Of a stretch of 64,000 bases of DNA, positions 5,321-21,000 are shown piece by piece. The stretch covers positions 2,787 through 66,786 of the forward strand of contig CANNFM010000024.1 in assembly GCA_947503835.1 (NCBI GenBank), read 5' to 3'. The notes beneath the pieces are model-generated. The model was not told where the DNA came from. It saw only the letters and a list, made by a program, of their open reading frames with translations, and ran no database searches. Made by a program: the position numbers and the translations under genes. This DNA comes from an uncultured Aquimarina sp. Lineage in GTDB: Bacteria > Bacteroidota > Bacteroidia > Flavobacteriales > Flavobacteriaceae. The stretch's first letter is position 1; each line of letters begins with the position of its first letter.

Positions 5321-5423
5321 CAGTTTTCTTTATAATTGTTTTTTTTTATTAATTCTTATTTAAAATATTGATAATCAAATAATTGATAATTTTTTTATCT
5401 CCCTTAATTCCATGAATTACGGG

Positions 5424-5443
5424 TCTTGATTCCTGAAAACGGG
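5424..5443. promoter_or_regulatory. Second copy of the half-site motif (gtctNgattcctgaaaacNgg) in the divergent lanB / NusG-NRPS intergenic region
   Basis: Positions 5424-5443 (gtcttgattcctgaaaacgg) and 302-321 plus flank (gtctggattcctgaaaacagg) share an exact 13-mer, gattcctgaaaac, and match at 19 of 21 positions overall. Both copies are intergenic. Confidence 0.5.
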
Positions 5444-5452
5444 CTTTAACCA

Positions 5453-5485
5453 TTTGTTTTGTGGTTTAGTTTTGATTTATGTTTG
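5453..5485 (+). promoter_or_regulatory. Candidate Bacteroidota-type promoter for the NusG-like/NRPS-PKS operon (-33 TTTG 5453-5456; -7 TATGTTTG 5478-5485)
   Basis: The spacer is 21 bp. An alternative -7 box, TAGTTTTG, lies at 5467-5474. This promoter would give a leader of about 340 nt before the ATG at 5835. The short motifs are common in AT-rich DNA. Confidence 0.35.
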
Positions 5486-5658
5486 TATCAGATAACGAAA
5501 CAGATATTATTAATTCATATCATATTCGATTATTGATTTTAAACTTTTTGATTAGTAAAAAAGCATCTTATAATAGCTTAAAAAAGTTAAGATGAACAAA
5601 ATTAATTTAGAAGTTATATAAAGAACAGTAAGTAACTTTTTTACTGTAGAAGATTAAG

Positions 5659-5703
5659 AGTAAAAGTAGCAGCTTTTACTATACGTTACCTTTTATTTTT
5701 TTG
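5659..5703 (+). promoter_or_regulatory. Leader-region hairpin (agtaaaag/cttttact, 8 bp) followed about 10 nt later by a T-rich tract; possible attenuator or antiterminator-recruitment element
   Basis: The stem is 5659-5666 / 5673-5680 with loop tagcag, then atacgttaccttttattttttt. A second 7-bp hairpin lies at 5625-5647. Function was not established. Confidence 0.25.
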
Positions 5704-5834
5704 AGAATATACTTGATGTGAGTCAAGGAAGCGAAGCTATAGGCTTTTTCTAGATTTCTTTTGATTATCACTATTACAAAACACGAATATATACTTAAGA
5801 TAGTAAGTAAACTATCATCTAAAACACAATAATT

Positions 5835-6362
5835 ATGGGCAAACTTCTTAAAATAGGTTGGTACGTTTTATACGTTAGATCACATCAAGAAAAAAAAGTT
5901 GACAACTTGCTAAAAGAGAGTCAGCTGGAGTCATTTCTTCCTTTGGTAAAGACTGTAAGACAATGGAGTGATAGAAAGAAAATAATTGAAGCTCCTCTTT
6001 TTCCTTCATATGTTTTCGTCAAGATTAATTCTGCACAAGATTTCTATAAAGCATCATCGATTGAAGGTGCTTGCACCTTTATTCGCTGTGGTGGTGAATA
6101 TGCATTAGCCCAAGATCATGAAATACAAAAAATTAAGCTTTTTCTCGGTTCTAAGGATATCACTAATGTTGGTAAAGTTACCAGCAATCTTGAAGTTGGA
6201 GAAACTATGATGATTCAATACGGATCCCTTGCTGGTTTAGAATGTGAAGTCTTAAAGGTAAACAATGAAAATAAGATTGTTGTTCGATTAGATTCTATAA
6301 ATCAAGGTATTACTGCAACAATACCTTCGCAATTTTTATCAAAAATCTCAAAAGCAGTGTGA
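5835..6362 (+). CDS. NusG-family specialised paralogue (UpxY/LoaP/TaA-like transcription antiterminator)
   Basis: 175-aa ORF. It has an N-terminal NGN-like region (WYVLYVRSHQEKKVDNLL...PLFPSYVFVKI) and a C-terminal KOW-like region (GETMMIQYGSLAGLECEVLKVNNENKIVVRLD). It is the first gene of the ~58 kb co-directional block, and its TGA (6360-6362) overlaps the next start. Confidence 0.85.
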   Translation: MGKLLKIGWYVLYVRSHQEKKVDNLLKESQLESFLPLVKTVRQWSDRKKIIEAPLFPSYVFVKINSAQDFYKASSIEGACTFIRCGGEYALAQDHEIQKIKLFLGSKDITNVGKVTSNLEVGETMMIQYGSLAGLECEVLKVNNENKIVVRLDSINQGITATIPSQFLSKISKAV

Positions 6363-8446
6363 TGAAAAATAAAATATCTAAGGCACAAGCGGATAATCGG
6401 TTAGATTACCAGATGCCAGAAAATAATCAAATAGAGTTCGTTACTTATATAAATTCTATCCGAGAGCGTAATCATGCTACTCAACTCATTTTTTATGGAA
6501 GAAATAATAATCAAACAAACTATAACGGATACAGAATAGAAATTAAAGAGATCGAGAAATCGATCCAACGGGTAAATATATATGTGGTAGATTGTTATGT
6601 GTGTATCGATGAAGTTAATAATAATCCAATCTTGATAGCCTATCTTATAGCAAATGAATCTTTTGTAAATGTTACAACATTGGCTATTAAATTAAAAAGA
6701 TATTTGCCTGATTATATGATCCCAACTCATTTTGTGATTATAGATGCAATTTCTTTGCTTCCTAATGGTAGAATTGATATAAAAAAATTACCAAAGCCTA
6801 AGTTTTCGGATATTAAAGAAGTGGTTAAATTGCCTTCAACAGAAGAGGAAAGAAAGATAGCGGCAATTTGGAAAGAATTATTGAAATTAGACGAAGTAGA
6901 TGTTAACGTTAGTTTTTTCGAATTAGGAGGACATTCATTGCTTGCTAATGAATTTATAAATACGGTAAGAAATGAAAAGGGAATAGATTTATCGATACAA
7001 GATTTTTATAAAAATCCAACAATTAAAGGAATTAGTAAATTAGTTCCTTCTTTAAAAAAGAAACCAAATCAAAAGATAGTTGCACCCAACCTTGAGCTTT
7101 ATCCTTTATCGTATTCTCAAGAAGCGATTTGGTCTTTGGATCAACTTGATGCTACTCATCAATTTTGTTATGAATCTAGGGCGATTAAACTAAAAGGCAA
7201 TGTAGATCATTATTTATTAGAAAAAACTTTTTCTAAACTTATAGAAAAACACGAGATTTTAAGAACGGTTTTTGAGTTGATAGAAGGAGAGCCTTTCCAA
7301 AAGATATTACCTCCATATACATTTAGCATTCCGGTTACGAATTATGTAGGATTGAAGAAAAAAGACCAGAAAAAGATAATTATTGATCGTATAGAGAATA
7401 CCAAGAACTCTTCTTTTGACATAGAAAAAACACCTCTTTTTAAAGCAGAGATGCTAAAATTTTCGACAAAAGAAAACGTTCTCATATTTTGTAGCCACAA
7501 TATGATTCTTGATAAGTGGGCTCAAAGAATTTTGTTTAAGGATTTTGTTGATGTTTATAATGAACTAAAGAGGAATCCTAATTTCGAGATTAAAAAACCG
7601 AAAGTTAGTTATAAAGACTATGCGTTTCTGGAAAAAGAAAACCTAAATGAAGCAGCCCTCAATAAACGATTAGATTTTTGGCAAGATAAACTAGAAGGTT
7701 TTTCAAATGAATTGCTGGTTCCTGTAGATAATGTTAGGCCAAAAAAGCAGGTAAAAACAAGAGAGGTTATACCGCATGTTCTATCATTAGAGTTTTCTGA
7801 GAAATTAAGACAGTTCTCTGAAATGCAGAACGTTTCCTTATTTATCACAATGATTTCGGCTTTTAAAATAATGTTGAGTAAGTATAGTAACCAAACAGAC
7901 ATTTGTGTGGGGACTTCATTAATAAATACGTTCTATCAAGGGTATCAAGAAGTTTTGGGAGCTACCGTAAATACTATTCCATTAAGAGATCGTCTTAATT
8001 ATGATCATAGCTTGTTAGAGGTTTTGGATCATGTTAAAAAAACTTGTTTAGATGCATATGCATGTGGTGATACTCCTTTTGAAAAAATTGTAGGTCGAGT
8101 ATGCCCAGAAAGAAATTTCAATCCTCAAGCATTATTTAGATATATGTTTAGTTTTATTGATTTTCCAATAAAAAATATGTCATTATTAGATGCCGAAATC
8201 GAGATAATAAAAGGATATTGTGACCTTTCTACGTTTGACATCAATGTAGTTGTAAACACAACACAAGAACAAGCTGATTTTTCTTTAGTAAATCAAACAG
8301 ATAGAAGAATTTCTTTAGAATGGCAATATAATTCTGATATTTTTAAAGCTACTACAATGGAGTATATATTATCTATGTATTTAATAACATTAAACGAGCT
8401 GATCACCAATCCCAACCAATCTCTTGGTACTACTTCTGTGATTTAA
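6359..8446 (+). CDS. Atypical NRPS protein: relic adenylation C-terminal subdomain - T (PCP) - C domain with degenerate active-site motif
   Basis: Only A8-A10-like motifs are present: YGRNNNQTNYNGYRIEIKEIE, LPDYMIP, and NGRIDIKKLP, where the A10 Lys is replaced by Arg. There is no A1-A7 core. The T domain is FFELGGHSLLA (about 6919-6948). A full-length C fold follows, with SHNMILDKW (7493-7519) in place of HHxxxDG. The track start at 6359 is GTG. The ATG at 6362 shares its A with the upstream TGA and is the likelier start. Confidence 0.85.
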   Translation: MMKNKISKAQADNRLDYQMPENNQIEFVTYINSIRERNHATQLIFYGRNNNQTNYNGYRIEIKEIEKSIQRVNIYVVDCYVCIDEVNNNPILIAYLIANESFVNVTTLAIKLKRYLPDYMIPTHFVIIDAISLLPNGRIDIKKLPKPKFSDIKEVVKLPSTEEERKIAAIWKELLKLDEVDVNVSFFELGGHSLLANEFINTVRNEKGIDLSIQDFYKNPTIKGISKLVPSLKKKPNQKIVAPNLELYPLSYSQEAIWSLDQLDATHQFCYESRAIKLKGNVDHYLLEKTFSKLIEKHEILRTVFELIEGEPFQKILPPYTFSIPVTNYVGLKKKDQKKIIIDRIENTKNSSFDIEKTPLFKAEMLKFSTKENVLIFCSHNMILDKWAQRILFKDFVDVYNELKRNPNFEIKKPKVSYKDYAFLEKENLNEAALNKRLDFWQDKLEGFSNELLVPVDNVRPKKQVKTREVIPHVLSLEFSEKLRQFSEMQNVSLFITMISAFKIMLSKYSNQTDICVGTSLINTFYQGYQEVLGATVNTIPLRDRLNYDHSLLEVLDHVKKTCLDAYACGDTPFEKIVGRVCPERNFNPQALFRYMFSFIDFPIKNMSLLDAEIEIIKGYCDLSTFDINVVVNTTQEQADFSLVNQTDRRISLEWQYNSDIFKATTMEYILSMYLITLNELITNPNQSLGTTSVI

Positions 8447-8633
8447 AGAGAAATTTCTGATTACACAGGAGGACTTCGTATCTCTAGCTAAGTTTATCAC
8501 AATATTACAAGTAACTACAATTTTTTCTTAGCCCACAGGGGTTGAGAAATCATCAAGGATTTATCATGAGTTTTTGAGAAATGAAAATTGTAAATTTTTA
8601 TAATTCCATCATCCATTAAATATTTTATATATA

Positions 8634-10300
8634 ATGAATTCTTTAAAAAAATATAAGACACTTTCTCAAGTGCTCGAATTTAGGAAAAACTCAACCAAGG
8701 GGATAACTTTTATCGAAGGTGGTGAGAAAGAAATTTTTCTTTCTTATAATGAGCTATACCATAAAGCTGTAACAAAATTGTCTTATCTGCAAAAGAAAGG
8801 AATAAAACCCCAAAATGAATTGGTGTTTCAAATTAATGATAATGAGACATTTATTATTCTTTTTTGGGCTTGTATTCTTGGAGGTATAATTCCTGTGCCG
8901 TTAAGTATTGGAAGAAATTCAGAACATAAACAGAAACTCTTCAATATTTGGCCAATATTAAATAACCCTTATTTAGCAATTTCAAAAGACGAAATTGGCA
9001 AACTTAAGAATTATGATGACAAGGATAAGTTGGCTGAGATAGAGGAAAAGATTATTGATTTTGAAGGTAAACTTAGCGGAAATAATACTGCAACAATATA
9101 TGAAGCACAAAAAGATGATATTGCTTTCATTCAATTTTCTTCGGGATCTACTGGAAACCCAAAAGGTGTAGTTTTAACTCATGAGAATTTGTTAACAAAT
9201 ATATTGGATATTAGTACGGCTTCAAGTTATGCCGAGGAAGATTCAATGATTAGCTGGATGCCACTCACTCATGATATGGGGCTTATAGGTTTTCATTTGA
9301 ACCCTTTGTTTATAGGAATGAATCATTATTTGATGCCTACGGATCTTTTTGTAAGAAGACCGTCTATATGGTTAGATAAAGCAAGTGAACACCAAATAAG
9401 TATTTTATGTTCTCCTAATTTTGGGTATAAATATATTTTAAAACATTGTAATGTTGACAGTTCAGAACAGTGGGATTTAAGTGCTGTTCGATTAATTTAC
9501 AATGGGGCAGAACCTATTTCAGAGACAATAAGTAATCAATTTTTAGAAAGTCTATCTAAATATGGATTAAAAAAATCTGCAATGTGTCCGGTTTATGGTT
9601 TAGCCGAAGCAAGTTTGGCGGTTACCATATCTAACCTTGAAGATACTGTTGTATCCTTTAATTTTGATAGAGATCAATTAAATACAGGAGATAAAGTTCG
9701 AATAACATCCAGGGAGGAAAATAATTCAGTGTCATTTGTTAAAGTAGGAAAACCGATTAATCATTGTTCGTTAAGAATTACAGATGAAAAAAATGAATTG
9801 GTTAAAGAAGAAGTAATAGGACACATTCAAATTAAAGGGGATAATGTTACATCTGGGTATTATAACAATCCTGAAGCTACTAGAAATGCTGTCATAGAAG
9901 ATGGCTGGGTTAAGACAGGAGATTTAGGTTTTATCAAAGATGAAGAACTATACGTAACAGGAAGATTAAAAGATATTATTTTTAGCAATGGGCAAAATTA
10001 CTATCCTCATGATATAGAACGTATAGCCGAAAAAGTAGATGAGATTGAACTTAATAAGGTTGCTTTTGGCGGTTTTTTTAATGGCAATACTCAAAAAGAA
10101 GAAATTATCGCTTTTGTATTTCATAGAGGAAGCTTAGATAAGTTTATCCCAATCGTAACAGCATTAAAAGAAGTGGTACATACAGAAATTGGGCTAGATA
10201 TAAATAGTGTAGTACCTGTAAAAAACATGCCGAAGACCACAAGCGGAAAGTTACAGCGCTTTAAGTTATTATCCGATTATAGAAATGGGGCTTTTGATGA
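8634..10300 (+). other. Fatty acyl-AMP ligase (FAAL) loading domain
   Basis: The motifs FSSGSTGNPKGVVLTHENLLTN and SWMPLTHDMGLIGFHLNPLFIG are FAAL-type rather than amino-acid A-domain type. An ACP follows directly. Boundaries are approximate. Confidence 0.8.
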
Positions 10301-13300
10301 AGTAAATGAAAAAGTGAAATCTTTAATTCTTGAAAAGAATTTCGACAATATAGTAGTACCTGCTAATGAGAAAGAGCATAAACTACTTACTATTTGGAAA
10401 AATGTTCTGGACTTCGAAAATATCAGTGTAGAAAAAAGCTTTTTTGAACTCGGAGGTAACTCATTAAAAGCCGCCGAAATGATGATGGCTTTGGTTAAAG
10501 AATTTCAAGTAGAAATCACACCTGATATACTCTATAAATATCAAACTATAAGAGGTTTAGCTTCAGTGTTAACTAAATTAAAACCCAAAACATATAATGC
10601 AATACCTAAGTCGGAGACTTCAAATTTTTATCCTGTTTCTAGTGCACAAAAAAGACTATACTATGCCTGGAAAATGGATAAAAGAAGTGTAGCATATAAT
10701 ACTCCTACTGCATTTAAAGTACAAGGAAGAATAAGCACTGAAAAATTAAGAAAGGTAATCAATGAATTAGTGAATAGACACGACGCCTTACGAATGGTGT
10801 TTGATGAGATGCCGAATCCTGTTTTTAGCACTGATGAAATAAATGAAGTGCCTATTTCAATTAAGAATTGTGAGCATCATACTATTCAAAACGAGCTTCG
10901 TAGACTCGTTGTGCCTTTTGATCTTACTACAGGACCATTATTTAGAATCACTGTTCTAAATATTGAAAATAAAGAGGCTATTCTGTTTTTAGATTTTCAT
11001 CATATTATTTCTGATGGAGTATCGATTCATCATTTTGTAAAAGAAATGATAACGCTATATGAAGGTAAGACATTAGAACCATTGACTATTGGTTATGGTG
11101 ATTATAGTAATTGGGAAAAAAACTATTATGATGAAGAAACTTTATCTTCACATCAATCGTATTGGTTAGACCAATTAAGAGGAGATTTACCAGAATTAAA
11201 GATAGAACCAGATTATCCAAGACCACCAATTTTTACTCCTAAAGGTGAAAAGATAGAGTTTGAATTCGATACTACTACAACTGCAAGATTAAAAACACTT
11301 GCTAATGAACAAGGGTGTACTTTACATGTGTTGATGTTTACCATGTACCATATGTTGATTGCCAAATACTCAGGAGCAAACGAAACAATAATAGGAATAC
11401 CAGTTGCAGGACGTAAACATCCAGATGTGCAATCCATGCAAGGAATGTTCGTTAACAACCTTCCGATAAGAAACACAATAAAAGGAGAACAAACAGTACG
11501 TGAAATCTTAAGAGATGTTGATGAACGTATTTCTAATGGGTTATTACATCAAGATTTTCCTTTTGATGAAATGATTACTGCAATTGCAAATACAAAGAAC
11601 ACCAGTAGAAACCCAATTTTCGATACGATGTTCGTTTATCAAAATATGGGAACCACAACACTTATTGGTCAAGATTTTACCTTGTCGAGATACTTTTTTG
11701 ATCCTGGCTATTCTAAGTTCGATATCTCCATAGAAGTTTTTGAAAATGACAAATCTCTTAAATATGGAATAGAATATAATACTACATTGTTTAAAAGAGA
11801 TATGATCCTAAATCTTCAAACATGTTTTGAAAATTTAGTAACTGAAATACTAAACGATCCAGATATTCCCTATGCAACATTATCATTACTAGACACTAAG
11901 GAAACCGATAGGTTTACTTATTTGTTTAATAATGATATTAAAACATATCCTAAAGAAAAAAGTGTATATCATCTGTTTGAAGAACAAGTACAAAGAGTAC
12001 CGAAATCGATAGCGTTAGAATTTGGTTCCCAAACGATGACATATGAAGAATTGAATGCTAAAGTTAACCACTTTGCTTTAGTACTAAAAGGAGAAGGAGT
12101 AGAGACTCAAGATGTTGTAAGTGTCTTGTTGCCAAGATCTTTTGAACTGGTGATCTCTATTCTGGGTGTAATGAAAATAGGAGGTGTATATGTTCCTTTA
12201 GATGCTGACCTACCCGAAGATCGTATTTGTTATATTTTAGAGCATAGTCAGTGTAAATATCTTATTACCAATTCTAACATGGAGTTAAAGGTTAACTCTG
12301 ATGATGAGGCTATATTTCCAGCATGTATTACCATAGATGATATCACATCGTCTAATGAGATTCTAAATACCAATATCGAATTTAAATACAGTTCTCAAAG
12401 TCCGGCATATATTTTATATACTTCCGGTACAACAGGTAAACCTAAAGGAGTTGTTGTTACAAATTCTTCTCTAACAAATTATACATGTTGGGCGGCAGAA
12501 ACATACATTAAAGAGAAATCAGCAAAATTTCCTTTATATACATCAATTTCATTTGATTTAACCGTAACCTCTATTTTTACTCCTTTAATTACTGGAAATA
12601 CAATTGTTATTTATGAAGAGGAACAGCAAGAAGTGTTGATAGAAAAAGTACTTAATGATGGTGTTGCAAACGTTGTGAAATTAACCCCATCACATCTAAA
12701 AATCATTCGAGATTTAAATATACAAGAAACACATTCAATTAAAAGATTTATAATAGGAGGTGAGGAGCTTGAAACCTCTCTGGCAAAAGATATTTACAAT
12801 CAATTTGGCGAAGATATAGAGCTATATAATGAATACGGTCCAACAGAAGCAACTGTAGGGTGCATGATATATAAGTTTGAACCAACAGATGATTTTAGAA
12901 CCGTTCCAATTGGGGTTCCTATAAAAAACACCCAAATCTATTTACTAGACGAATTCTTAAAACCTGTACCAGTCGGTGTACGAGGTGACTTATATATTTC
13001 GGGAGATGGGCTTGCACAAGGATATTTTAATAATGCCGCACTCACTAATGAGAAATTTATAGAAAATCCATTTGTAGAGGGGCAAAAAATGTATCAATCG
13101 GGAGATATTGCAGTAAGACGTTCTAATGGATTATTAGAGTATATCGGTAGATCAGACCAACAGATTAAAATTAATGGTTATAGAATTGAAATTCCTGAAA
13201 TCGAAAATTGTTTATTAGATCATTCAGGTATTAAACAAGCAATAGTCATATGTACTGATGCATCGGGAGAAAAATCATTACATGCCTATTATAGAAGCAT

Positions 13301-15092
13301 TGAAAATCAAAAAATCGATTATTCTGATTTGATAAGCTTTTTGGCAAACCGTCTGCCTTACTATATGATTCCAAGGTCATATACTTATGTAGAAAAAATG
13401 CCTTTAACCAAAAATGGTAAAATTGATCACAATGCATTACCTGAACCAGAGTTTCGAAGTGATAAAGCAGAAACAAGCTTTTCTGAAAATAGTATAGAGC
13501 AGACAATAGTAGAAGTGTGGCAAGAAATATTTGGAACTGAAAACATATCCATTAACGACAATTTCTTCGAAATGGGAGGAGACTCGATCAAGGCTGTTCA
13601 GATTTCTTCTAAATTAAACATGAATGGTATTACACTTGATGTAAAGGATATATTAACGTATCAAACCATCGCAATTACGGCACCTTATGCTAAAATTAAT
13701 CTTGAAAATGAAAAGTATGACCAGGGATTTGTCGAAGGGCTTAAAGCTTTAAACCCTATTGAAAGCTGGTTTATAAATCAAAAACTGCCAAACCCTAACT
13801 ATTATAATCAATCCGTTTTATTAAACTTCAATAAGCCAATAAATAATAAAGTCTTAAAACAAGCTTTCATGAGGTTGATTAACCATCATGATGGCTTAAG
13901 AATAAACTATAAACAAAATGAAAATAAGATATGGTTTAATGAAGCATACATAAATTATCCATTCAAAATTGAAAAATACAATATTAAAGTTGATGATGAA
14001 TTATTCGAAGTATGTACAAATATTAAAAACAGTATGGATATTGAAAATAGTTTGTTAATTAAAGCGGCTATTATTACATATCCAGATTCTTCTGAACAAT
14101 TATTTATTACAGCACATCATTTGGTTGTTGATGGAATTTCTTGGAGGATTCTACTTGATGATTTAAAGACAATTTATCAGTCGTTATTGTCAGATAATGA
14201 ACCCGTACTTCCAATGAAGACCATGTCTGTTAAAGAGTGGCAAACTTCACTTACAAGTTTAGTAGAGGAAACTAATTTTACAGCAAATGAAGTAGAGTAC
14301 TGGAAAAGTATAGAAGAAGAAGATTTTCAGTTGCCATATGATACAGAAACAAATGATTGGCGTTTTATAAACTCCAGACAAATAACGGTCAATCTTGATA
14401 AAGATCAAACAGCACACTTGTTGAAGAAAGCACATCGGTCCTATAAAACCAATATTGTTACATTATTAAGTACTGCACTCTCATTGGCACTTCAAGAATG
14501 GTTAAATAAAGAAGAGTTCGTTATTCAATTTGAAAATCACGGGAGACACATAGAGGATGTTGATGTTTCTAGAACAAGTGGATGGTTTACTGCGATGTAC
14601 CCAGTAAAACTTACCTTAATACAAGGACCAATAGATGATCAAATAAAAAGCATTAAAGAACAACTAGTGAGTGTTCCAAATAATGGACTAGGATACGGTA
14701 TTTCTAAATATATGAGAGATACAAAATTAGCTGATAATGACAAACTTTCAGAATTACGATTTAATTATCTAGGGCAATTTGATCAGGAGCTTACTAACGA
14801 TTTATTTGAATTCTCACAAGTATTTCATGGCAGTGAAGTCGGTCTTGAGAATATATTGACGACCAAGCTTGAGATTAATGCCATGGTTGTTCAAGAAAAG
14901 TTACAGATTTCTGCTAACTATAACAGTAAGTTTCATAAAAACGAAACTATATCGAGATTTTTGGAATCCTTCTTAATGAAATTATCTCTTATTATTGATC
15001 ATACCAAAAATCAAAAAGATATCCATTTCACTCCTTCTGATTTTGAAGCAATCAATTTAGAACAAGAAGAAATAGACTCACTATTCTCTTAA
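8634..15092 (+). CDS. Lipoinitiation NRPS: FAAL - ACP - C - A(Asn-type code) - T - E
   Basis: FAAL motifs: FIQFSSGSTGNPKGVVLTHENLL and SWMPLTHDMGLIG. ACP: FFELGGNSLKA (about 10441). C: FHHIISDGVS (about 10995). A: YTSGTTGKPKGV, NEYGPTEATVGC, LPYYMIP, NGKIDHNAL. By-eye specificity residues are D-L-T-K-I-G-E-V-G-K. T: FFEMGGDSIKAVQ (about 13563). E: AHHLVVDGISWRIL, ENHGRH, FNYLGQFD. Confidence 0.95.
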   Translation: MNSLKKYKTLSQVLEFRKNSTKGITFIEGGEKEIFLSYNELYHKAVTKLSYLQKKGIKPQNELVFQINDNETFIILFWACILGGIIPVPLSIGRNSEHKQKLFNIWPILNNPYLAISKDEIGKLKNYDDKDKLAEIEEKIIDFEGKLSGNNTATIYEAQKDDIAFIQFSSGSTGNPKGVVLTHENLLTNILDISTASSYAEEDSMISWMPLTHDMGLIGFHLNPLFIGMNHYLMPTDLFVRRPSIWLDKASEHQISILCSPNFGYKYILKHCNVDSSEQWDLSAVRLIYNGAEPISETISNQFLESLSKYGLKKSAMCPVYGLAEASLAVTISNLEDTVVSFNFDRDQLNTGDKVRITSREENNSVSFVKVGKPINHCSLRITDEKNELVKEEVIGHIQIKGDNVTSGYYNNPEATRNAVIEDGWVKTGDLGFIKDEELYVTGRLKDIIFSNGQNYYPHDIERIAEKVDEIELNKVAFGGFFNGNTQKEEIIAFVFHRGSLDKFIPIVTALKEVVHTEIGLDINSVVPVKNMPKTTSGKLQRFKLLSDYRNGAFDEVNEKVKSLILEKNFDNIVVPANEKEHKLLTIWKNVLDFENISVEKSFFELGGNSLKAAEMMMALVKEFQVEITPDILYKYQTIRGLASVLTKLKPKTYNAIPKSETSNFYPVSSAQKRLYYAWKMDKRSVAYNTPTAFKVQGRISTEKLRKVINELVNRHDALRMVFDEMPNPVFSTDEINEVPISIKNCEHHTIQNELRRLVVPFDLTTGPLFRITVLNIENKEAILFLDFHHIISDGVSIHHFVKEMITLYEGKTLEPLTIGYGDYSNWEKNYYDEETLSSHQSYWLDQLRGDLPELKIEPDYPRPPIFTPKGEKIEFEFDTTTTARLKTLANEQGCTLHVLMFTMYHMLIAKYSGANETIIGIPVAGRKHPDVQSMQGMFVNNLPIRNTIKGEQTVREILRDVDERISNGLLHQDFPFDEMITAIANTKNTSRNPIFDTMFVYQNMGTTTLIGQDFTLSRYFFDPGYSKFDISIEVFENDKSLKYGIEYNTTLFKRDMILNLQTCFENLVTEILNDPDIPYATLSLLDTKETDRFTYLFNNDIKTYPKEKSVYHLFEEQVQRVPKSIALEFGSQTMTYEELNAKVNHFALVLKGEGVETQDVVSVLLPRSFELVISILGVMKIGGVYVPLDADLPEDRICYILEHSQCKYLITNSNMELKVNSDDEAIFPACITIDDITSSNEILNTNIEFKYSSQSPAYILYTSGTTGKPKGVVVTNSSLTNYTCWAAETYIKEKSAKFPLYTSISFDLTVTSIFTPLITGNTIVIYEEEQQEVLIEKVLNDGVANVVKLTPSHLKIIRDLNIQETHSIKRFIIGGEELETSLAKDIYNQFGEDIELYNEYGPTEATVGCMIYKFEPTDDFRTVPIGVPIKNTQIYLLDEFLKPVPVGVRGDLYISGDGLAQGYFNNAALTNEKFIENPFVEGQKMYQSGDIAVRRSNGLLEYIGRSDQQIKINGYRIEIPEIENCLLDHSGIKQAIVICTDASGEKSLHAYYRSIENQKIDYSDLISFLANRLPYYMIPRSYTYVEKMPLTKNGKIDHNALPEPEFRSDKAETSFSENSIEQTIVEVWQEIFGTENISINDNFFEMGGDSIKAVQISSKLNMNGITLDVKDILTYQTIAITAPYAKINLENEKYDQGFVEGLKALNPIESWFINQKLPNPNYYNQSVLLNFNKPINNKVLKQAFMRLINHHDGLRINYKQNENKIWFNEAYINYPFKIEKYNIKVDDELFEVCTNIKNSMDIENSLLIKAAIITYPDSSEQLFITAHHLVVDGISWRILLDDLKTIYQSLLSDNEPVLPMKTMSVKEWQTSLTSLVEETNFTANEVEYWKSIEEEDFQLPYDTETNDWRFINSRQITVNLDKDQTAHLLKKAHRSYKTNIVTLLSTALSLALQEWLNKEEFVIQFENHGRHIEDVDVSRTSGWFTAMYPVKLTLIQGPIDDQIKSIKEQLVSVPNNGLGYGISKYMRDTKLADNDKLSELRFNYLGQFDQELTNDLFEFSQVFHGSEVGLENILTTKLEINAMVVQEKLQISANYNSKFHKNETISRFLESFLMKLSLIIDHTKNQKDIHFTPSDFEAINLEQEEIDSLFS

Positions 15093-15143: not shown

Positions 15144-16130
15144 ATGAAATCACATGATATACAAATAATTTCGGGTAAAAAAATGTTGCTTCAAATCGAT
15201 GATAACAAGGTTAATATTTTTGATTGGCTACATCAATATAAAGAAGATATAGAAGATTTTATTTCTGTTAATGGAGCACTATTAATTCGTGGCTTGGGGG
15301 TTTCTAATGATAAAGAATTTGGAGAAGCTTTAGAATTAGTATTTGGAGAAGAATTAGCAAATTATACATACAGATCTACTCCAAGAAGAGAAGTAAATCA
15401 AAGTAAAGTGTATACAGCAACAGAATATCATGCTTCTGAGGTAATTCCTCAACATAACGAAAATGCGTATTCGAATTCTTGGCCAATGAGAATAGGATTT
15501 ACCTGTTTGGTTCCTGCTGATAAAATGGGGAATACTCCAATTTCGGATAGTAGAGAAGCATACCAAAAAATTCCTATTGAAATAAGAGAAGAATTCGAAA
15601 GAAAGAACATCAAGTATGTTAGAAACTATTCAGATATAGATTTGCCATGGGAAGAAGTATTTCAAACCACTAGCAAGACAGAGGTAGAGCAATATTGTAA
15701 TGAAAACAATCTAACATTTGAATGGACAGATAATGGATTGAGAACTAGTCAGGTAAATCAAGCTACGATCATGCATCCAACTACAAAAGAGATGTTGTGG
15801 TTTAACCAAGCTCATTTGTTTCACTCTAGTAACTTAGATTCAGAAATTAGAGAAGGATTAATAGAGTTGTTTGGTGAAGATAATTTACCACGTAATTCGT
15901 TCTTTGGTGATGGTACCCCAATTGACGAAGAAGCACTTTCGATCATAAGAAAAGTGTTTGAGGATACTAAATTTTCTTTTCAATGGAGTAAAGGAGACTT
16001 ACTTCTTCTAGACAATATGTTATATACGCACGGAAGAGAACCTTATGAAGGAAACAGAAAAATCCTTGTAGGAATGGCTAAAAAATATAGCTCTCAAATG
16101 CGTCGTAGTAGAGTATCTACAGATTTATAA
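15144..16130 (+). CDS. TauD/TfdA-family Fe(II)/2-oxoglutarate dioxygenase (SyrP/AsnO-like amino-acid beta-hydroxylase candidate)
   Basis: 328-aa ORF. It has an H-x-E facial-triad candidate (QHNENAY), a distal His (LYTHGREPY) and the typical ~330-aa size of NRPS-associated hydroxylases. It is embedded between NRPS genes. Confidence 0.75.
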   Translation: MKSHDIQIISGKKMLLQIDDNKVNIFDWLHQYKEDIEDFISVNGALLIRGLGVSNDKEFGEALELVFGEELANYTYRSTPRREVNQSKVYTATEYHASEVIPQHNENAYSNSWPMRIGFTCLVPADKMGNTPISDSREAYQKIPIEIREEFERKNIKYVRNYSDIDLPWEEVFQTTSKTEVEQYCNENNLTFEWTDNGLRTSQVNQATIMHPTTKEMLWFNQAHLFHSSNLDSEIREGLIELFGEDNLPRNSFFGDGTPIDEEALSIIRKVFEDTKFSFQWSKGDLLLLDNMLYTHGREPYEGNRKILVGMAKKYSSQMRRSRVSTDL

Positions 16131-16466: not shown

Positions 16467-17981
16467 ATGATAAGTATTCCTTTTAAACCATTTAAAACAT
16501 TCAGAAAAGACATTTGTAGTTGTATACTTTTTTTGGGTATCGCCCAATTAGGATTTACACAACTAAATAATCAGTATGATATTGTTTTGCAAGGAGGAAG
16601 AGTAATAGACCCTGAAACAAAACTTGACGCTATTCGAAATATAGGTATCCGTGATGGGCAAATTATTGAAATTTCAACTAAACCATTATCTGGAGCCGAA
16701 AACATTAATGTTTCTGGTCTAATTGTATCACCGGGGTTTATTGATTTGCATGTACATGGGATTACTAATGTAGAGCAAGAATACCAAATTAAAGATGGAG
16801 TAACCACTGCACTAGAGTTAGAGTGGGGGCTACCATTTTTAAAAGAATGGTATGAGCTGCGAAAGTCAAAAGCTATAATAAATTTTGGAGCAAGTGTTAA
16901 TTGGCCCATAACCAGAGTGCAATCGTTGGCTTCTTACCAAGAACAGCTAAGTTCTTTAAAAGAAACAATGTCTACAAAAGGTTTACCCGTGACAATGACT
17001 ATGCCCGCTTTTGGAAGAAGCTTTTATCAAGAACTACCTGTAGAGAAAATACCAGCGATGCTAGAGCATGTTCGGGCATCGCTAAAGAGTGGAGGATTAG
17101 GTATTAGTATGCCTATTGGGTATTTACCTGGCGCCAGTACCGAAGAAGTTTTTAGAACATATCAATTAGCCGGAGAGTTAAAATCACCTGTTTATGCACA
17201 TGTTAGAGAGGGTGGGATTATTGCCATTCAGCAAGTTATTTCTGATGCAGTGCTTACTAATGCTCCATTGCATATTTCTCATATCAATAGTATGGCTTTA
17301 AGCAACATTAATTTAGCTATTGAGATGGTGGATATCGCTCAAAAATCTGGATTTGATATCACAACAGAACTATATCCATATACAGCGGGTTCAACAGATT
17401 TAAAGTCCGCGATTTTTGATACGGGTTGGCAAAAAAAGTTGGGTATAAGTTTTAAAGATTTGCAGTGGGTTGCTTCTGGAGAACGATTAACAGAAGAAAC
17501 CTTTGCCAAGTATAGAAAAGAAGGAGGGACAGTTGTAATACATAATATGAAACCGGAGTGGATAGCATCAGGAGTTGCTTCAAAGAGTACAATTATAGCA
17601 TCAGACGGAATGCCATATGCAAAGTTAGCTCACCCTAGATCTTCAGGTACTTTCTCTAGAGTTTTAGGAAAATATGTTAGAGAGGATAAAGTACTAGATC
17701 TTATTGAAGCGATAAAGAAAATTACATTTCTTCCAGCAAAGAGATTGGAGATAATTGCCCCTGTAATGCAACGTAAAGGTAGAATTCAAGAAGGCGCAGA
17801 TGCAGATATTACAATATTCAATTTTGATAAAATAATAGACAAATCTACGTTCGAAAAAGGAATACAACCTTCAGAAGGAGTAGAATATGTTTTGGTTAAT
17901 GGTATTCCAGTTCTAAGAAAAGGAAAAATTGTAGAAAATGTTTTTCCTGGTCAACCTATTTACGGGAAATACAAAGATTGA
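16467..17981 (+). CDS. Secreted amidohydrolase-superfamily enzyme, N-acyl-D-amino-acid deacylase (D-aminoacylase, COG3653)-like
   Basis: 504-aa ORF with an N-terminal signal-like segment (basic n-region FKPFKTFRKD, hydrophobic ICSCILFLGIAQLGF). The core matches D-aminoacylases: DIVLQGGRVIDP, VSPGFIDLHVHG (HxH metal motif), DGVTT, and C-terminal GRIQEGADADITIFN...VEYVLVNGIPVLRKGK. Confidence 0.75.
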   Translation: MISIPFKPFKTFRKDICSCILFLGIAQLGFTQLNNQYDIVLQGGRVIDPETKLDAIRNIGIRDGQIIEISTKPLSGAENINVSGLIVSPGFIDLHVHGITNVEQEYQIKDGVTTALELEWGLPFLKEWYELRKSKAIINFGASVNWPITRVQSLASYQEQLSSLKETMSTKGLPVTMTMPAFGRSFYQELPVEKIPAMLEHVRASLKSGGLGISMPIGYLPGASTEEVFRTYQLAGELKSPVYAHVREGGIIAIQQVISDAVLTNAPLHISHINSMALSNINLAIEMVDIAQKSGFDITTELYPYTAGSTDLKSAIFDTGWQKKLGISFKDLQWVASGERLTEETFAKYRKEGGTVVIHNMKPEWIASGVASKSTIIASDGMPYAKLAHPRSSGTFSRVLGKYVREDKVLDLIEAIKKITFLPAKRLEIIAPVMQRKGRIQEGADADITIFNFDKIIDKSTFEKGIQPSEGVEYVLVNGIPVLRKGKIVENVFPGQPIYGKYKD

Positions 17982-18046
17982 TTTCAATGTACATCACTCA
18001 ATAAACTTCAATTCAAATTGATATACAAAACTATTAAAAGGAACTA

Positions 18047-21000
18047 ATGGCTAACAAGATCGACAAACAAAACGTTCAAGATATTTTTGAACTGAGTATG
18101 GTTCAAAAAGGAATGCTATTTCATCATTTAAAGGACGAAAGCGAAAACACATACAATGCCCAATTGGTATTTACTATTAATGGCAATTTAGATGTGAATA
18201 TATTACAATCTGCATTAAATGGTGTGCAAATTAATCATGAAGCTTTGCGTTCTGTTTTTAGATGGGAAGAAGTAAGCAAGCCTTTACAAATTATTTTAAA
18301 AACCGCTCCCATTAAGATCCAATATTATGATGTTTCTGATAAAAATGAAAGGGAACGTCAAATGTATATTGAAGAGTATGCTTTGAAAGATCAAAAAAAA
18401 CGTTTTGATCTTTCACAAGTTCCGATGCGAGTATCCGTAATAAAAGAGACAGAAACATCCTTTGTATTATGTATTACAAATCATCATATACTATATGATG
18501 GATGGAGCACGGGCATTTTATTAAAAGAACTTTTTGTCAATTATAATGAAATCGTTACTGGAAATGAGGTAAAAGCAAAACAAAAAATATCATATAAGAG
18601 ATATATCCTGTCTAAGCAAAAAGAAAATGATTTAGAAAAAGAACATGACTATTGGAAGAAATATTTGAAAGAATATCAAATTACTTCATGTTTTTCTAAA
18701 AAAGATAACGAAAATCAAACAGGGGAATCGGTAGAAAAAAAGCATTTAAAAGTTGGAATAGAATCAATTAAAAAACTATCCAAAGAACAAAAAATAACGC
18801 CAGCAGCCATAATTTATGCCGCCATTGGTGTTTTACTTCAAAAACTTACTGCAACTTCTGATATTGTTCTTGGGACTACAGTATCCGGAAGAGATGCGAC
18901 TATTGAAGGTGTAGAAGATCTTGTGGGTAACTTTATCAATACAATCCCATTAAGGATAACCAATGAAGGCAATGATGCTGATACATCATTTATTGAGGTC
19001 GCAAAAGGAGTCTATGAAGAAGGGTTAGTAAGAAACCAAAATACAAACACTTCTTACTATGAAATAAAAAAATTGCTGGAACTCAAAGCGTCTGAAGAAC
19101 TATTTGATGTTGTCGTTGTTGTCGAGAACTATCCCTTAGATGAAAAAGCTATCAATGGAAATCCAGATTTTGAAGTTAAGTTAAAATCGGTATACGAAAA
19201 TACCGGGATTCCTTTGGTAATTACTGTGTTTTTAAAGGAAGAGTTAGAGTTAGAATTGATCTATCAACCTTCAATAATCAGCGAAGATAATATAGATTTA
19301 TTTTCAGTTTCTTTAGAAAGAATATTGAATCAAATTCAAGAAAACCCTACAGTACCCGCACATTCTTTTGGGCTTTTAAGCGAAAAAGAAATGGCTTGGC
19401 AAATAGAGACCTTCAATGAAACTGCAAAAGAACTGCCAAAATCAGAGACCGTACTTTCTCTTTTTGCCAAGCAGCAAATATCTACTCCTAATAAAGTGGC
19501 CGTTATATGTGGATCAGAGCAATTGACATATCAAGAATTGGGAGATTTATCTGATAAAATTGCGGCCTATCTAAAACAAGAAAAAGGAATTCAAAAGGGA
19601 GAATTGGTAGGTTTAATGCTAGGAAGAGATTTTAATTTAGTTCCGATAATTTTAGGTGTTTTAAAGGCTGGAGCTGCCTATGTGCCTATTGACCCAACGT
19701 ATCCGGTTGTAAGAATTAATAATATTCTAGAACAGTCGAAATTAGGACTTTTAGTAACAGAGAATAAGGATATAGCTTCATCATTAAGCACAACTTCTCA
19801 GATTATTGATGTGCAAGACCTAATGATAAGTCTTCCAGAAATAAATGTTTTATCGCAAGAAAATACTCTAAAAGATGACCTGGCTTACGTAATTTTTACA
19901 TCTGGATCTACTGGAACTCCAAAAGGAGTTATGATAGAGCATGCTACTTTGCTAAATTATATTTACTGGGCTGCAACTTATTATGTGAAGGAAGAAGAGC
20001 TCACTTTTCCATTATATTCTTCTATTTCCTTTGACTTAACAGTTACATCGATTTTTACACCATTAATAACAGGAAATACTATTATCGTTTATAAAGATGA
20101 AACTAATCGACTTCCAATTGATGCAGTACTTAAGGATAATAGAATTAACATCGTTAAGTTAACTCCTTCACACTTAAAAATAATCAGAGATAATGATCTG
20201 TTTGATGCAGCTACAAGTACTATTCGAAAGCTAATTGTAGGAGGAGAAGAATTAGAATATCATCTGGCTAAAGATATTATAGAAAAATTCAACGGTGATG
20301 TAACGATTTATAACGAATATGGGCCTACAGAAGCAACCGTTGGTTGTATGATTTATGATTTTGATACTTCTCTAAACACAGGGTCGGTATCACTAGGAAA
20401 CCCTATTAATAATACTCAGGTTTATATTCTGGATCCTAATATGAACCCTGTTCCGGTTGGGGTAAAAGGAGAATTATATATAGCAGGAGAAGGATTAGCA
20501 AGAGGATACTTGGGTAGAAAGGATTTAACCCAGGAACGATTTATCGAAAATCCCTTTAACCCTGGTAAAAAGATGTATAAAACAGGAGATTATGCCATTA
20601 GGGAGAAAGGCAATCATATCCTTTTTAATGGCAGAATAGATGAGCAGATAAAAATATCGGGTTATAGAATCGAACTAAAAGAAATTGAGAATACTCTTTC
20701 TACATATCCCAAAATTAAAGAATCGGTAGTAGCAGTTAAGGAAAAAGATAATAACAAGATACTGGTAGCATATTATTTGTCAGATAGCGAAATTGCTATC
20801 GATAGTTTAAAAAAATATGTAGAAGATAAACTCCCTACATATATGCTTCCTATGTATTACATAAAACTAGAAGCATTACCCCTAACCTCAAATGGAAAAC
20901 TAGACTATAAGAAATTACCTGAGGCAGATTCCTTAGTAGTTGATGATTATCACGCACCTTCGACTACCATAGAAAAATTATTGGTTAAGCATTGGTCCGA

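Follow-up and report, generated by a model that had tools for sequence, protein, structure and literature searches.

A putative N-acyl-D-asparagine starter of an orphan NRPS-PKS operon in Aquimarina and its relatives in the Bacteroidota

The 64-kb stretch of Aquimarina DNA analysed here (the window) contains an orphan NRPS-PKS operon of about 5.8–63.8 kb, which extends from an antiterminator gene at 5835 to the stop codon of the last NRPS gene at 63838; the window reaches just 160 bp past the operon end. The ORF at 8634–15092 very probably encodes the module that loads this assembly line and carries out its first extension, with acyl-D-Asn as the starter predicted from its domains. It represents, in Aquimarina, a conserved and so far uncharacterised family of Bacteroidota genes, each of which would by itself encode an N-acyl-D-Asn starter. 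N-acyl-D-Asn as the product of the starter is well supported by the sequence comparisons. In other bacteria, this kind of cap, a fatty-acylated D-asparagine, is attached to toxins as a safeguard and can be removed.

Domain organisation of the starter protein

A single plus-strand ORF fills 8634–15092 exactly and encodes a protein of 2152 amino acid residues. The domain order FAAL-ACP-C-A-T-E, proposed in an earlier sequence-only reading, was recovered by Pfam, NCBIfam, motif scan and PDB matches (Table 1). Pfam detected two AMP-binding (E 1e-128), two PP-binding and two Condensation (E 1e-177) regions as well as AMP-binding_C. The best NCBIfam matches of the first 589 residues were fatty acyl-AMP ligase models (PRK09192, E 4e-112, under the curated cutoff), and the solved structures closest to the N-terminal domain were the McyG loading domain, 6ULW and the FAALs of Legionella and E. 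coli (3KXW/3PBK). Together with the carrier motif, these matches agree at the sequence level with the proposed acyl supply by a fused FAAL-ACP; the fusion of a dedicated FAAL-ACP suggests that the acyl group is chosen, not scavenged. The match of the C domain spans positions 3–453 of the 456 positions in the Condensation profile, and in BLAST comparisons this domain grouped with the window's LCL-type C domains, apart from the post-E group. The A3 motif of the A domain (SGTTGKPKG) is located at residue 1264. The last 463 residues matched TIGR01720, an epimerase-associated domain, and all E-domain motifs were intact, among them PIESWF, HHLVVDG (1828), ENHGRH, RTSGWFT, PNNGLGYG and FNYLGQ (2043), in line with the postulated epimerisation of Asn. 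By BLAST, the E domain fell into one group with the window's two other E domains.

Table 1 Features of the Aquimarina operon (positions in the window; aa, residues of the respective protein)
Feature	Position	Strand	Evidence or remark
UpxY/NusG-family antiterminator, operon head	5835..6362	+	NCBIfam antiterm_UpxY, 141.8 bits vs cutoff 100
ORF with A-subdomain remnant, T domain and C-like domain without catalytic His	6359..8446	+	Aquimarina-specific
FAAL-like acyl-AMP ligase domain, aa 1-560	8634..10313	+	NCBIfam, PDB, WMPLTHDMG motif
Acyl carrier domain, aa 583-644, Ser in GGNSL at 607-611	10380..10565	+	Pfam PP-binding, motif scan
C domain predicted to N-acylate Asn, aa 664-1092, HHIISDG at 789	10623..11909	+	Pfam Condensation
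A domain, Asn-type code, aa 1115-1596	11976..13421	+	Pfam AMP-binding and AMP-binding_C, GrsA alignment
T domain, GGDSI at aa 1648	13491..13703	+	Second Pfam PP-binding stretch, motif scan
E domain, aa ~1700-2152, all seven core motifs	13731..15092	+	TIGR01720, motifs from translation
TauD/SyrP-type Fe(II)/2-oxoglutarate hydroxylase, H-x-E...H triad intact	15144..16130	+	Pfam TauD, E 7e-36
Signal-peptide-bearing amidohydrolase, D-aminoacylase / N-acyl-D-Glu deacylase family	16467..17981	+	NCBIfam PRK09061, 482 bits vs cutoff 340
D-donor-type (DCL-like) C domain heading module 2, QKGMLFH at aa 20, HHILYDG at aa 146	18047..19366	+	
Module 2 A(Asn)-T-E, span approximate	19411..22500	+	Code DLTKIGEV(G)K
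AsnB-type asparagine synthetase homologue	51311..53173	+	Pfam Asn_synthase and GATase_7

Alignment of the starter A domain to GrsA-PheA gave the code DLTKIGEVGK, identical to the canonical Asn code at nine of ten positions and the same as that read earlier. The position numbering was checked with GrsA itself: the sequence that we take to be the GrsA-PheA reference reproduced its own code DAWTIAAICK. In the same alignment, ZmaO from the zwittermicin cluster was read as DLTKIGEVCK and agreed with the starter at every alignment-resolved residue (DLTKIGEV-K). The C in the ZmaO code is read as an alignment-gap artefact by parallel with the module-2 A domain of the window, where this artefact was seen directly (actual residues TVGC). 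Asn is not peculiar to the cap in this operon, since four of its A domains share the Asn code, module 2 is likewise A(Asn)-T-E and an AsnB-like gene is present.

From these assignments, the FAAL-like domain would adenylate a carboxylic acid, most likely a fatty acid, for loading onto the fused ACP, and the A domain would load L-Asn onto the T domain. The C domain would N-acylate the T-bound Asn, the E domain would epimerise the acylated residue, and the D-donor-type C domain of the protein encoded at 18047 would join N-acyl-D-Asn to a second Asn, itself epimerised.

Operon and genes downstream of the starter

The TauD gene and the gene for the secreted-type amidohydrolase, absent from the earlier reading, lie directly 3' of the starter, and no plus-strand terminator was found between these two genes and module 2. 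The DCL-like C domain claimed to follow downstream was located: QKGMLFHH and HHILYDGWS both occur at the N-terminus of the ORF at 18047. Q-x-GMLFH is present in all three post-E C domains of the window, which group by BLAST, and the other C domains have neither feature. A QKGMLFH-type motif also heads the next NRPS in most related loci. Module 2 further contains GGDSI at residue 1002, HHLVIDG at 1183 and FNYLGQ at 1399. The operon includes KR-containing PKS modules; no TE or other release domain was visible in the assembly line. A counterpart of the ORF upstream of the starter (6359..8446) was not found at the loci inspected in other genera.

The TauD protein could be aligned to PDB 9YUT. Its gene also follows the starter in Flavobacterium, Chryseobacterium, Chitinophaga and one metagenome locus, and not in the Fulvivirga or Pedobacter loci. 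The residue-2 codes of the family loci specify Asn, Thr, Ser or other residues; TauD is present in all four lineages with Asn as residue 2, and Ser or Thr is specified at this position in three of the four loci that lack TauD and whose residue-2 code could be read.

The amidohydrolase matched PDB entries 1M7J and 3GIP (E 1e-34 and 3e-31) and keeps the HxH motif, two further His residues, the catalytic Asp and the carboxylate-binding Tyr (YPY) and Arg (HPR). An N-terminal signal peptide was found in all nine family members inspected. Insertion of the gene between the TauD gene and module 2 occurs in Aquimarina alone, at the same place in five related contigs besides the window's own assembly. 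Sites beside the carboxylate-binding Arg that are conserved elsewhere are substituted in these BGC copies. From the conserved carboxylate-binding residues, the enzyme is expected to act on substrates whose C-terminal D-residue is free rather than on an internal acyl-D-Asn-Xaa bond. Homologues of 60–66% identity are common in Bacteroidota, and neither of the two non-Aquimarina contexts inspected was an NRPS cluster. At locus L002, an S12 gene adjoins an amidohydrolase homologue.

A starter family across the Bacteroidota

More than 100 Bacteroidota proteins of 2110–2190 residues share 45–55% identity with the starter along the full length. All of the 108 same-length homologues have the Asn-type code and the family-specific FAAL motif WMPLTHDMG, and 104–105 have the E-domain signatures. 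In the relatives, a NusG gene or a type II thioesterase gene precedes the starter gene, which is the first of the NRPS genes; an upstream NusG gene as in the window was present at L014, L017, L019, L020, L023, L089 and L099. The family starters feed at least five different downstream assembly lines, including a 2581-aa C-A(Asn)-T-E-C-A-T protein, a 3625-aa type, a 4571-aa NRPS-PKS and one of 3580 aa. That the starter stays constant while the assembly lines behind it vary is the strongest reason to suppose that the cap is functional in its own right. A hydrolase common to all family loci was not found. At L092, an active-looking C39 peptidase-ABC exporter adjoins the starter, and a MacB/FtsX permease is encoded near it in four relatives. 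TonB-dependent-receptor-like outer-membrane proteins occur beside the BGCs in the Chryseobacterium, Chitinophaga, Pedobacter and metagenome loci, in three cases accompanied by an ECF sigma factor.

Fate of the acyl-D-Asn cap

The sequence-only reading had assigned the cap to the prodrug systems with a ClbP-type peptidase, for which colibactin, xenocoumacin, zwittermicin, amicoumacin, paenilamicin and edeine are listed, and in which the peptidase is clustered with the NRPS; homologues are reported chiefly from Firmicutes and also from Proteobacteria (PMC9889268). The N-acyl-D-Asn chemistry withstood every sequence test, whereas membership in a ClbP prodrug system did not: neither an S12 peptidase nor an exporter is encoded within the window. 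PF00144 matched none of the 15 window ORFs of at least 150 aa, and phmmer with four S12 queries against all six-frame window peptides of at least 50 aa gave no match, as the reading had anticipated for a ClbP-like gene. No ClbP/ZmaM-type S12 peptidase was detected in the operon or the 8.6 kb upstream of the starter ORF, and no S12 peptidase within ±10 kb of 19 related starter loci from many genera. As positive controls, the same queries retrieved genes for ClbP-like and ZmaM-like proteins next to C-A(Asn)-T-E NRPSs at L096 and L095.

We infer that no ClbP-type prodrug system operates here. With slightly less than even confidence, we favour a released product that keeps acyl-D-Asn as an exocyclic lipid head, in which residue 2, predicted to be β-hydroxylated (Asn with TauD here) or to bear a hydroxyl of its own (Ser or Thr in relatives), may offer a site for ring closure or another function. 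Counted against retention are the invariant acyl-D-Asn before variable lines, which resembles a generic, recognised handle, the secreted N-acyl-D-amino-acid deacylase homologue within the operon, the exporter at L092 and the permeases of the four relatives, the short reach of the window past the operon and, for ring closure, the lack of a visible release domain. Moreover, every characterised N-acyl-D-Asn N-terminus known to us (colibactin, xenocoumacin, zwittermicin, amicoumacin, paenilamicin and edeine) is a cleaved pro-moiety, and we know of no mature product that keeps it. The main alternative, which we regard as rather unlikely, is a ClbP-independent pro-moiety: the acyl-D-Asn handle would keep the growing or exported precursor inactive or membrane-bound until a non-S12 periplasmic hydrolase removes it. 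In Aquimarina, the amidohydrolase would cut the cap or degrade released N-acyl-D-Asn to fatty acid and D-Asn; in other genera, other enzymes would act. The agreement of the starter code with that of the authentic prodrug starter ZmaO, the starter invariance, the C39-ABC exporter and the precedents PvdL/PvdQ and Tem25 are consistent with such a handle, as are the kinship of the amidohydrolase with N-acyl-D-amino-acid deacylases, its retained metal ligands and Tyr/Arg, its signal peptide, its constant position in all Aquimarina BGC copies seen and their substitutions beside the Arg. However, the orthologous BGCs in Flavobacterium, Chryseobacterium and one metagenome relative lack the amidohydrolase, which therefore cannot be the general cap-removing enzyme; the substrate predicted from its residues, its frequent homologues in Bacteroidota, outside NRPS clusters in both contexts inspected, and the lack of a shared hydrolase likewise argue against this alternative. 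Cap removal by some non-ClbP enzyme is possible in view of the TauD and amidohydrolase genes downstream, the phylum-wide family and the starter invariance.

A classical prodrug system with its ClbP-type peptidase and exporter encoded elsewhere in the genome, beyond the window, is improbable. In its N-acyl-D-Asn chemistry and its D-donor C domain the operon corresponds exactly to the known systems, little DNA past the operon was covered, and S12 genes exist in Bacteroidota genomes, as at L002; against this stand the clustering and taxonomic distribution of the known peptidases (PMC9889268) and the S12 searches, negative in the window and at the 19 loci with both controls found. A quite improbable reading places acyl-D-Asn at the head of an amphiphilic metallophore or siderophore-like lipopeptide, whose metal would be bound by hydroxylated Asn residues and polyketide hydroxyls and which TonB-dependent receptors would sense and re-import. 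It would accommodate the TauD hydroxylase, the four Asn modules, the KR-containing PKS modules and the recurring receptor-like proteins with their sigma factors. The window, however, holds no receptor, sigma factor or transporter gene, and the receptor genes of the relatives, which frequently lie on the other strand, may have no connection with the BGCs that they adjoin. To our knowledge, a role as chelating group is established for β-hydroxy-Asp but not for β-hydroxy-Asn.

Comparison with known initiation systems

ZmaO (zwittermicin A, plasmid pBMB431 of B. thuringiensis HD-1) shares the order C-A(Asn)-T-E with the starter, a likeness that extends to starters of the ClbN, XcnA and AmiA type. 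In contrast to the starter, ZmaO lacks a fused FAAL-ACP, and its cluster includes the gene for ZmaM, in which an S12 peptidase is joined to an ABC exporter and for which the window has no equivalent. The identity along the whole C-A-T-E stretch is 34%, no higher than the 35–36% shared with C-A-T-E modules from the interior of unrelated Bacillus NRPSs; the resemblance is thus functional and does not indicate close kinship.

PvdL of the pyoverdine pathway, which was among the PDB matches of the starter A domain, likewise has a fused acyl-AMP/CoA-ligase-like domain and a carrier before the first C-A module. Its starter acyl group is removed later in the periplasm by PvdQ; in telomycin, Tem25 removes the starter acyl group. 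PvdL acylates L-Glu, whereas the starter is predicted to yield acylated D-Asn; acyl removal is a feature of the pyoverdine pathway and is hypothetical for the Bacteroidota starter family, and the Ntn hydrolase type that acts in pyoverdine is absent from the window. The amidohydrolase belongs to the same fold family as the D-aminoacylase of Alcaligenes (1M7J) and the N-acyl-D-glutamate deacylase Bb3285 (3GIP). Unlike these, it lacks the conserved Cys metal ligand (LELEWG), carries a signal peptide and is encoded inside an NRPS operon.

Lipodepsipeptides of the ramoplanin/enduracidin type carry acyl-Asn/Asp as an exocyclic head, and the residue after it, β-hydroxy-Asn or Thr, closes the ring. 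They differ from the starter system in acyl supply and hydroxylase type and show no sequence kinship with it; here, no TE domain was seen, and the residues at positions 1 and 2 are both predicted to be D-configured. The likeness lies in the predicted residue 2 of the family, Asn plus TauD, or Ser/Thr.

Domain organization of the starter NRPS

The starter NRPS contains two AMP-binding, two carrier and two Condensation-family domains (Pfam). Its first 589 amino acid residues score best with fatty acyl-AMP ligase (FAAL) models (NCBIfam PRK09192, E 4e-112; under the curated cutoff for full-length proteins, which a lone domain is not expected to reach), the middle pieces affiliate with NRPS C and A domain models, and TIGR01720, typical of epimerases, was found in the last 463 residues. 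Among solved structures, the N-terminal domain comes closest to the McyG loading domain, 6ULW and the FAALs of Legionella and E. coli; relative to McyG, an extra segment of ~20 residues is located at residues ~336–366, the site of the FAAL insertion. All core motifs were read from the translation (ACP GGNSL, C HHIISDG, A3 SGTTGKPKG, T GGDSI), and the E motifs PIESWF, HHLVVDG, ENHGRH, RTSGWFT, PNNGLGYG and FNYLGQ are intact. Pfam, NCBIfam and motifs confirmed in full the order FAAL-ACP-C-A-T-E proposed in the sequence-only reading, with a FAAL-clade ligase fused to a carrier at the start of the line as in FAAL-initiated systems.

Alignment to GrsA-PheA yielded the specificity code DLTKIGEVGK, the same string as read earlier and one conservative change from the canonical Asn code. 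The numbering of the GrsA-PheA reference was checked by its own code, DAWTIAAICK. The D-donor (DCL) signature quoted previously, QKGMLFH(H) and HHILYDG(WS), was recovered at the N-terminus of the module-2 NRPS encoded from position 18047. All three C domains following an E domain in the window carry Q-x-GMLFH and form a BLAST cluster of their own, which includes this one; the three E domains form a separate cluster and the remaining C domains, the acylating one among them, a third. This grouping served as an internal control for the D-donor call. The starter is predicted to select Asn, to N-acylate it and to epimerise it. Judged from domains and motifs, the full series, from activation and loading of the acyl group through loading, N-acylation and epimerisation of Asn to transfer to the D-donor C domain, is very probable.

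Organization of the biosynthetic operon

Every large gene between 5835 and 63838 lies on the plus strand of the window (G+C ~32%), and AT-rich non-coding DNA follows. The relatives of the encoded proteins place the window in Aquimarina (Flavobacteriaceae). TE, transporter and peptidase genes were not found in the operon.

Positions of features in the window and in inspected loci; (Asn) marks an A domain with an Asn-type code
Locus	Feature	Position	Strand	Remark
Window	Split LanB-type lanthipeptide dehydratase (768 aa + 291 aa), AraC/TPR regulator	353-5276	-	divergent from NRPS operon
Window	UpxY/NusG antiterminator	from 5835	+	first in operon
Window	6359 ORF: A-subdomain remnant, T, C-like domain without catalytic His	6359-8446	+	second in operon
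Window	Starter NRPS, FAAL-ACP-C-A(Asn)-T-E	8634-15092	+	single 2152-aa ORF exactly fills these coordinates
Window	TauD-type hydroxylase		+	after starter; H-x-E...H triad intact
Window	Amidohydrolase	16467-17981	+	after TauD gene
Window	NRPS, C-A(Asn)-T-E-C-A-T	from 18047	+	after amidohydrolase
Window	KS-AT-KR-ACP-C-A-T-E-C		+	next in order
Window	A(Asn)-T-C-A(embedded monooxygenase)-T	36202-42321	+	after KS-AT-KR-ACP-C-A-T-E-C
Window	Monooxygenase-split A domain	39919-41691	+	in ORF 36202-42321
Window	KS-AT-KR-ACP-C-A(Asn)-T-C		+	after monooxygenase-containing NRPS
Window	AsnB-type amidotransferase / asparagine synthetase homologue	51311-53173	+	
Window	A-T-C		+	after AsnB-type gene
Window	Last NRPS	56666-63838	+	ends A-T
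L002	S12 β-lactamase-family gene and amidohydrolase homologue	8583-11488		Cyclobacteriaceae
L015	TonB-dependent-receptor-like neighbour	7563-9782		
L016	TonB-dependent-receptor-like neighbour	3990-8100		
L022	TonB-dependent-receptor-like neighbour	3182-7180		
L089	TonB-dependent-receptor-like neighbour	113-2563		
L099	TonB-dependent-receptor-like neighbour	1639-5683		
L092	C39 peptidase-ABC exporter directly upstream of type II TE and family starter; carbamoyltransferase and further genes downstream	7034-9268 and 16514-22247		595-kb metagenome contig
L095	ZmaM-like protein	3-2954		beside C-A(Asn)-T-E NRPS
L096	ClbP-like protein (513 aa)	17209-18750		beside C-A(Asn)-T-E NRPS

An Asn-type code was found in four A domains of the window, which makes Asn a repeated constituent of the product and not a peculiarity of the cap. 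A recent duplication of these domains was rejected, as they share no blastn similarity. Positions 1 and 2 of the product are both predicted to be D-Asn. The presence of the carboxylate ligand (H-N-E) excludes the TauD gene as a halogenase. Identity with the Aquimarina aquimarin BGC was likewise rejected, aquimarin being made by a bimodular PKS, 12 NRPS modules and a halogenase; literature searches returned no described product or family for the BGC of the window. A sigma-70 promoter scan, which does not cover Bacteroidota promoters, stayed at chance level.

Several genes of the operon have unusual features. The 6359 ORF overlaps the stop codon of the NusG gene and encodes 694–695 aa in four Aquimarina BGC copies; its T domain is intact (GGHSL), and the His motif of its C-like domain reads SHNMILDK, the catalytic second His being lost. 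It might function as an 'interface'-type C domain that serves the TauD hydroxylase, or as the release module that the line otherwise lacks. In ORF 36202-42321, a luciferase-like monooxygenase domain splits an A domain whose code is Gly-like (DIL-LGMVWK). It resembles the MtaG/MelG-type modules that α-hydroxylate glycine, with the difference that the copy of the window is located mid-line and not at the end, where it could cause an oxidative chain scission or yield an α-hydroxy/α-keto unit. The AsnB-type homologue, in one operon with the four Asn-coded A domains, could serve Asn supply or an amidating tailoring step. The last NRPS opens with a C-domain fragment and contains two tandem C domains; no TE, R or terminal C domain was detected on it, and the mechanism of chain release is not visible up to position 64000. 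Judged from their lengths, related Aquimarina contigs end within ~2 kb of this position.

A conserved starter family in Bacteroidota

With the whole starter as query, more than 100 proteins of 2110–2190 aa were recovered that align along its full length (100%) at 45–55% identity. Their sources are Fulvivirga, Flavobacterium, Chryseobacterium, Chitinophaga, Pedobacter, Mucilaginibacter and Cytophagales, as well as numerous metagenomes. The Asn-type code DLTK[I/V]GE[V/I]GK (with few alignment variants) and the family FAAL motif are present in all 108 homologues analysed, the E-domain signatures in 104–105 of the 108. The starter of the window conforms to this family in being a single gene of the same length range, domain order and code type that stands first in its NRPS operon. 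Scanning metagenomes with an alignment that covers FAAL-ACP-C yielded ten further family genes.

Downstream of the starter, the gene content differs. The cluster type of the window (starter, TauD, a 2581-aa NRPS and a ~3450-aa PKS-NRPS) also occurs in three other loci, those of Flavobacterium jejuense, Chryseobacterium sp. PS-8 and a metagenome contig. The amidohydrolase and the 6359 ORF are missing from all three orthologous clusters; the starter is preceded by a NusG gene in two of them, the Chryseobacterium locus being the exception. In Chitinophaga nivalis, starter and TauD are followed by a different, 3625-aa NRPS. The Fulvivirga maritima locus lacks TauD, its starter being accompanied by a MacB/FtsX permease and a 4571-aa NRPS-PKS. 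In Pedobacter, the starter is flanked by glycosyltransferases on the upstream side and by a 3580-aa NRPS-PKS on the downstream side. Among the loci of the metagenome scan, five have a type II thioesterase immediately upstream of the starter and three MacB/FtsX downstream, one contains SbnA/SbnB-like genes, and one a carbamoyltransferase with hydroxy- or methoxymalonyl-type genes. The starter is thus invariant and the downstream assembly line variable across the family. The C domain following the starter almost always carries the D-donor signature, and the code for residue 2 indicates Asn, Thr, Ser or another residue. TauD is present in all four lineages with Asn at residue 2; of the four TauD-less loci whose code could be read, three have Ser or Thr there. 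TauD was rejected as a fixed partner of the starter: it tracks Asn at residue 2, and Fulvivirga, Pedobacter and several metagenome loci do not have it.

A TonB-dependent-receptor-like outer-membrane protein (CarboxypepD_reg and OMP_b-brl_3) recurs beside family BGCs in different genera, and in three of these loci (L016, L022 and L099) it is accompanied by DUF6249 and an ECF sigma/anti-sigma pair. A LanB gene like that divergent from the NRPS operon of the window is also located upstream of the starter in the metagenome locus L089. In L092, another metagenome locus, the C39 peptidase-ABC exporter has an intact catalytic Cys motif (QLDTFDCGPTCL), and genes for a carbamoyltransferase, a 3-hydroxyacyl-CoA dehydrogenase, an FkbH-like HAD protein and an acyl-CoA dehydrogenase follow downstream.

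Search for a ClbP-type peptidase

ClbP-type prodrug peptidases occur mostly in Firmicutes, also in Proteobacteria, and always inside the clusters (PMC9889268). In the window, no PF00144 domain was detected among ORFs of at least 150 aa. Phmmer searches of six-frame peptides of at least 50 aa gave no S12 match in the window or in 19 family loci. The four queries (ZmaM, the ClbP-like protein of L096 with S12 domain and three TM helices, the ZmaM-like protein of L095, and a Bacteroidota S12 protein from L002) recognised each other as well as the control loci L095 and L096. The earlier statement that no ClbP-like gene is visible thus holds within the window for both Pfam and phmmer. The 15 ORFs of the window include no transporter gene, hence no dedicated exporter; some relatives have MacB/FtsX or C39-ABC genes. 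Of the 'classic prodrug motif' assigned in the sequence-only reading, the starter and the D-donor C domain stand, and the S12 peptidase and the exporter are lacking in the window. The starter and its operon do not qualify as a ClbP-type system: the defining peptidase is lacking and so, in the window, is the exporter. This lowers the case for a ClbP prodrug system; by itself it does not lower that for a removable cap.

The two control loci look like uncharacterised canonical prodrug clusters. The ClbP-like protein of L096 combines an S12 domain with three C-terminal TM helices, and the NRPS beside it carries the same Asn code as the starter of the window; the ZmaM-like protein of L095 is 43% identical to ZmaM.

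The amidohydrolase

The amidohydrolase scores above the PRK09061 cutoff (NCBIfam), and its closest structures are the D-aminoacylase of Alcaligenes (1M7J) and the N-acyl-D-glutamate deacylase of Bordetella (3GIP). In comparison with both, the metal and catalytic residues (HxH, His, His, Asp) and the carboxylate-binding Tyr/Arg are conserved. The Cys that holds the tightly bound zinc in 1M7J (Cys96) is absent, its position being taken by the Trp in LELEWG; nine family members inspected have LELE[WGF]G at this spot. An N-terminal signal peptide was found on the protein and on eight relatives inspected. The gene lies between TauD and module 2 at the same position in five related Aquimarina contigs examined, with no plus-strand terminator around it. 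The BGC copies differ from ~115 non-Aquimarina homologues at a few otherwise conserved sites (K109, F140 and S392/S393), the last two of which adjoin the carboxylate-binding Arg. The insertion site, signal peptide, conserved deacylase residues and BGC-specific substitutions make N-acyl-D-Asn an attractive candidate substrate of this enzyme. From the conserved carboxylate site, the substrate is predicted to end in a free D-residue at its C-terminus, so that released N-acyl-D-Asn would fit better than an internal bond.

Homologues with 60–66% identity are widespread in Bacteroidota. The closest outside Aquimarina (66%) is encoded immediately downstream of an S12 β-lactamase-family gene in L002, the sole other context examined, and lies outside any NRPS cluster, which suggests a housekeeping pair degrading D-amino-acid-containing peptides. 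A core, family-wide role in cap processing was rejected, since the orthologous clusters in other genera do not contain the gene; the widespread homologues and the substrate predicted from the carboxylate site also count against a general role. We treat the amidohydrolase as a lineage-specific accessory.

Fate of the predicted N-acyl-D-Asn terminus

Retention of the acyl-D-Asn on the product is the likeliest fate, at a little under even chances. It is favoured by the dedicated acyl-activating domain in a line with no ClbP, and by a second residue that bears a β-hydroxyl (Ser or Thr) or can gain one (Asn with TauD). Ramoplanin-type lipodepsipeptides have heads of an acyl-Asx1 followed by a β-hydroxy residue 2, and the combination of acyl-Asn1 with a β-hydroxylatable residue 2 in the family is reminiscent of these. 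To our knowledge, every characterised N-acyl-D-Asn terminus is a pro-moiety, which argues for removal of the cap, as do an invariant starter placed before variable assembly lines and a few peptidase and exporter hints: the amidohydrolase of Aquimarina, the C39-ABC exporter beside the starter of L092 and the MacB/FtsX permeases. Removal by an enzyme of a class other than ClbP is rather doubtful. Removal by a ClbP encoded distally is quite improbable. The rest falls to other roles, including metallophore-type ones.

On a broader scale, removal by non-ClbP enzymes could amount to a phylum-wide pro-moiety strategy independent of ClbP, in which a portable FAAL-ACP-C-A(Asn)-T-E gene caps many unrelated products and other enzyme classes remove or recycle the cap. 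We consider such a strategy unlikely. Candidate removers would be the periplasmic D-aminoacylase-type metallo-amidohydrolase in Aquimarina and, in one or more further lineages, the C39 peptidase-ABC exporter.

Comparison with known N-acyl-D-Asn systems

So far, N-acyl-D-Asn has been synonymous with a ClbP-activated prodrug, a system known from Firmicutes and Proteobacteria (PMC9889268). New is the encoding of this chemistry in a fused FAAL-ACP-C-A-T-E gene whose uncharacterised Bacteroidota family is large and comes without the known activating peptidase. The conserved gene is self-contained, as it brings the acyl-activating domain along, and its more than 100 protein products are predicted to make the same cap before several assembly lines. 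If Bacteroidota activate prodrugs by a new enzyme class, new targets and genome-mining hooks for hidden toxins and antibiotics would follow; if acyl-D-Asn is a stable lipid head group, 'N-acyl-D-Asn equals prodrug' is an unsafe annotation rule. The family also points to a large, conserved and uncharacterised group of lipopeptide-polyketide clusters, and this in a phylum from which few natural products are known.

The zwittermicin cluster on pBMB431 of B. thuringiensis encodes the starter NRPS ZmaO, which shares 34% identity with the starter along the entire C-A-T-E stretch. Its code, read in the same way, is DLTKIGEVCK. The C was taken as a probable alignment-gap artefact, of the kind directly shown for module 2 of the window; the codes agree at every alignment-resolved position, a match that strongly supports the predicted Asn specificity. 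A special evolutionary kinship was rejected, as internal C-A-T-E modules of unrelated Bacillus NRPSs score equally; the identity to ZmaO is no higher than to these, and the likeness is therefore functional. The defining partner of ZmaO, ZmaM, is an S12 peptidase fused to an ABC exporter and has no S12 counterpart in the window. Within the Bacteroidota family, the gene set of L092 recalls the zwittermicin tool kit, its peptidase-exporter fusion being of another kind.
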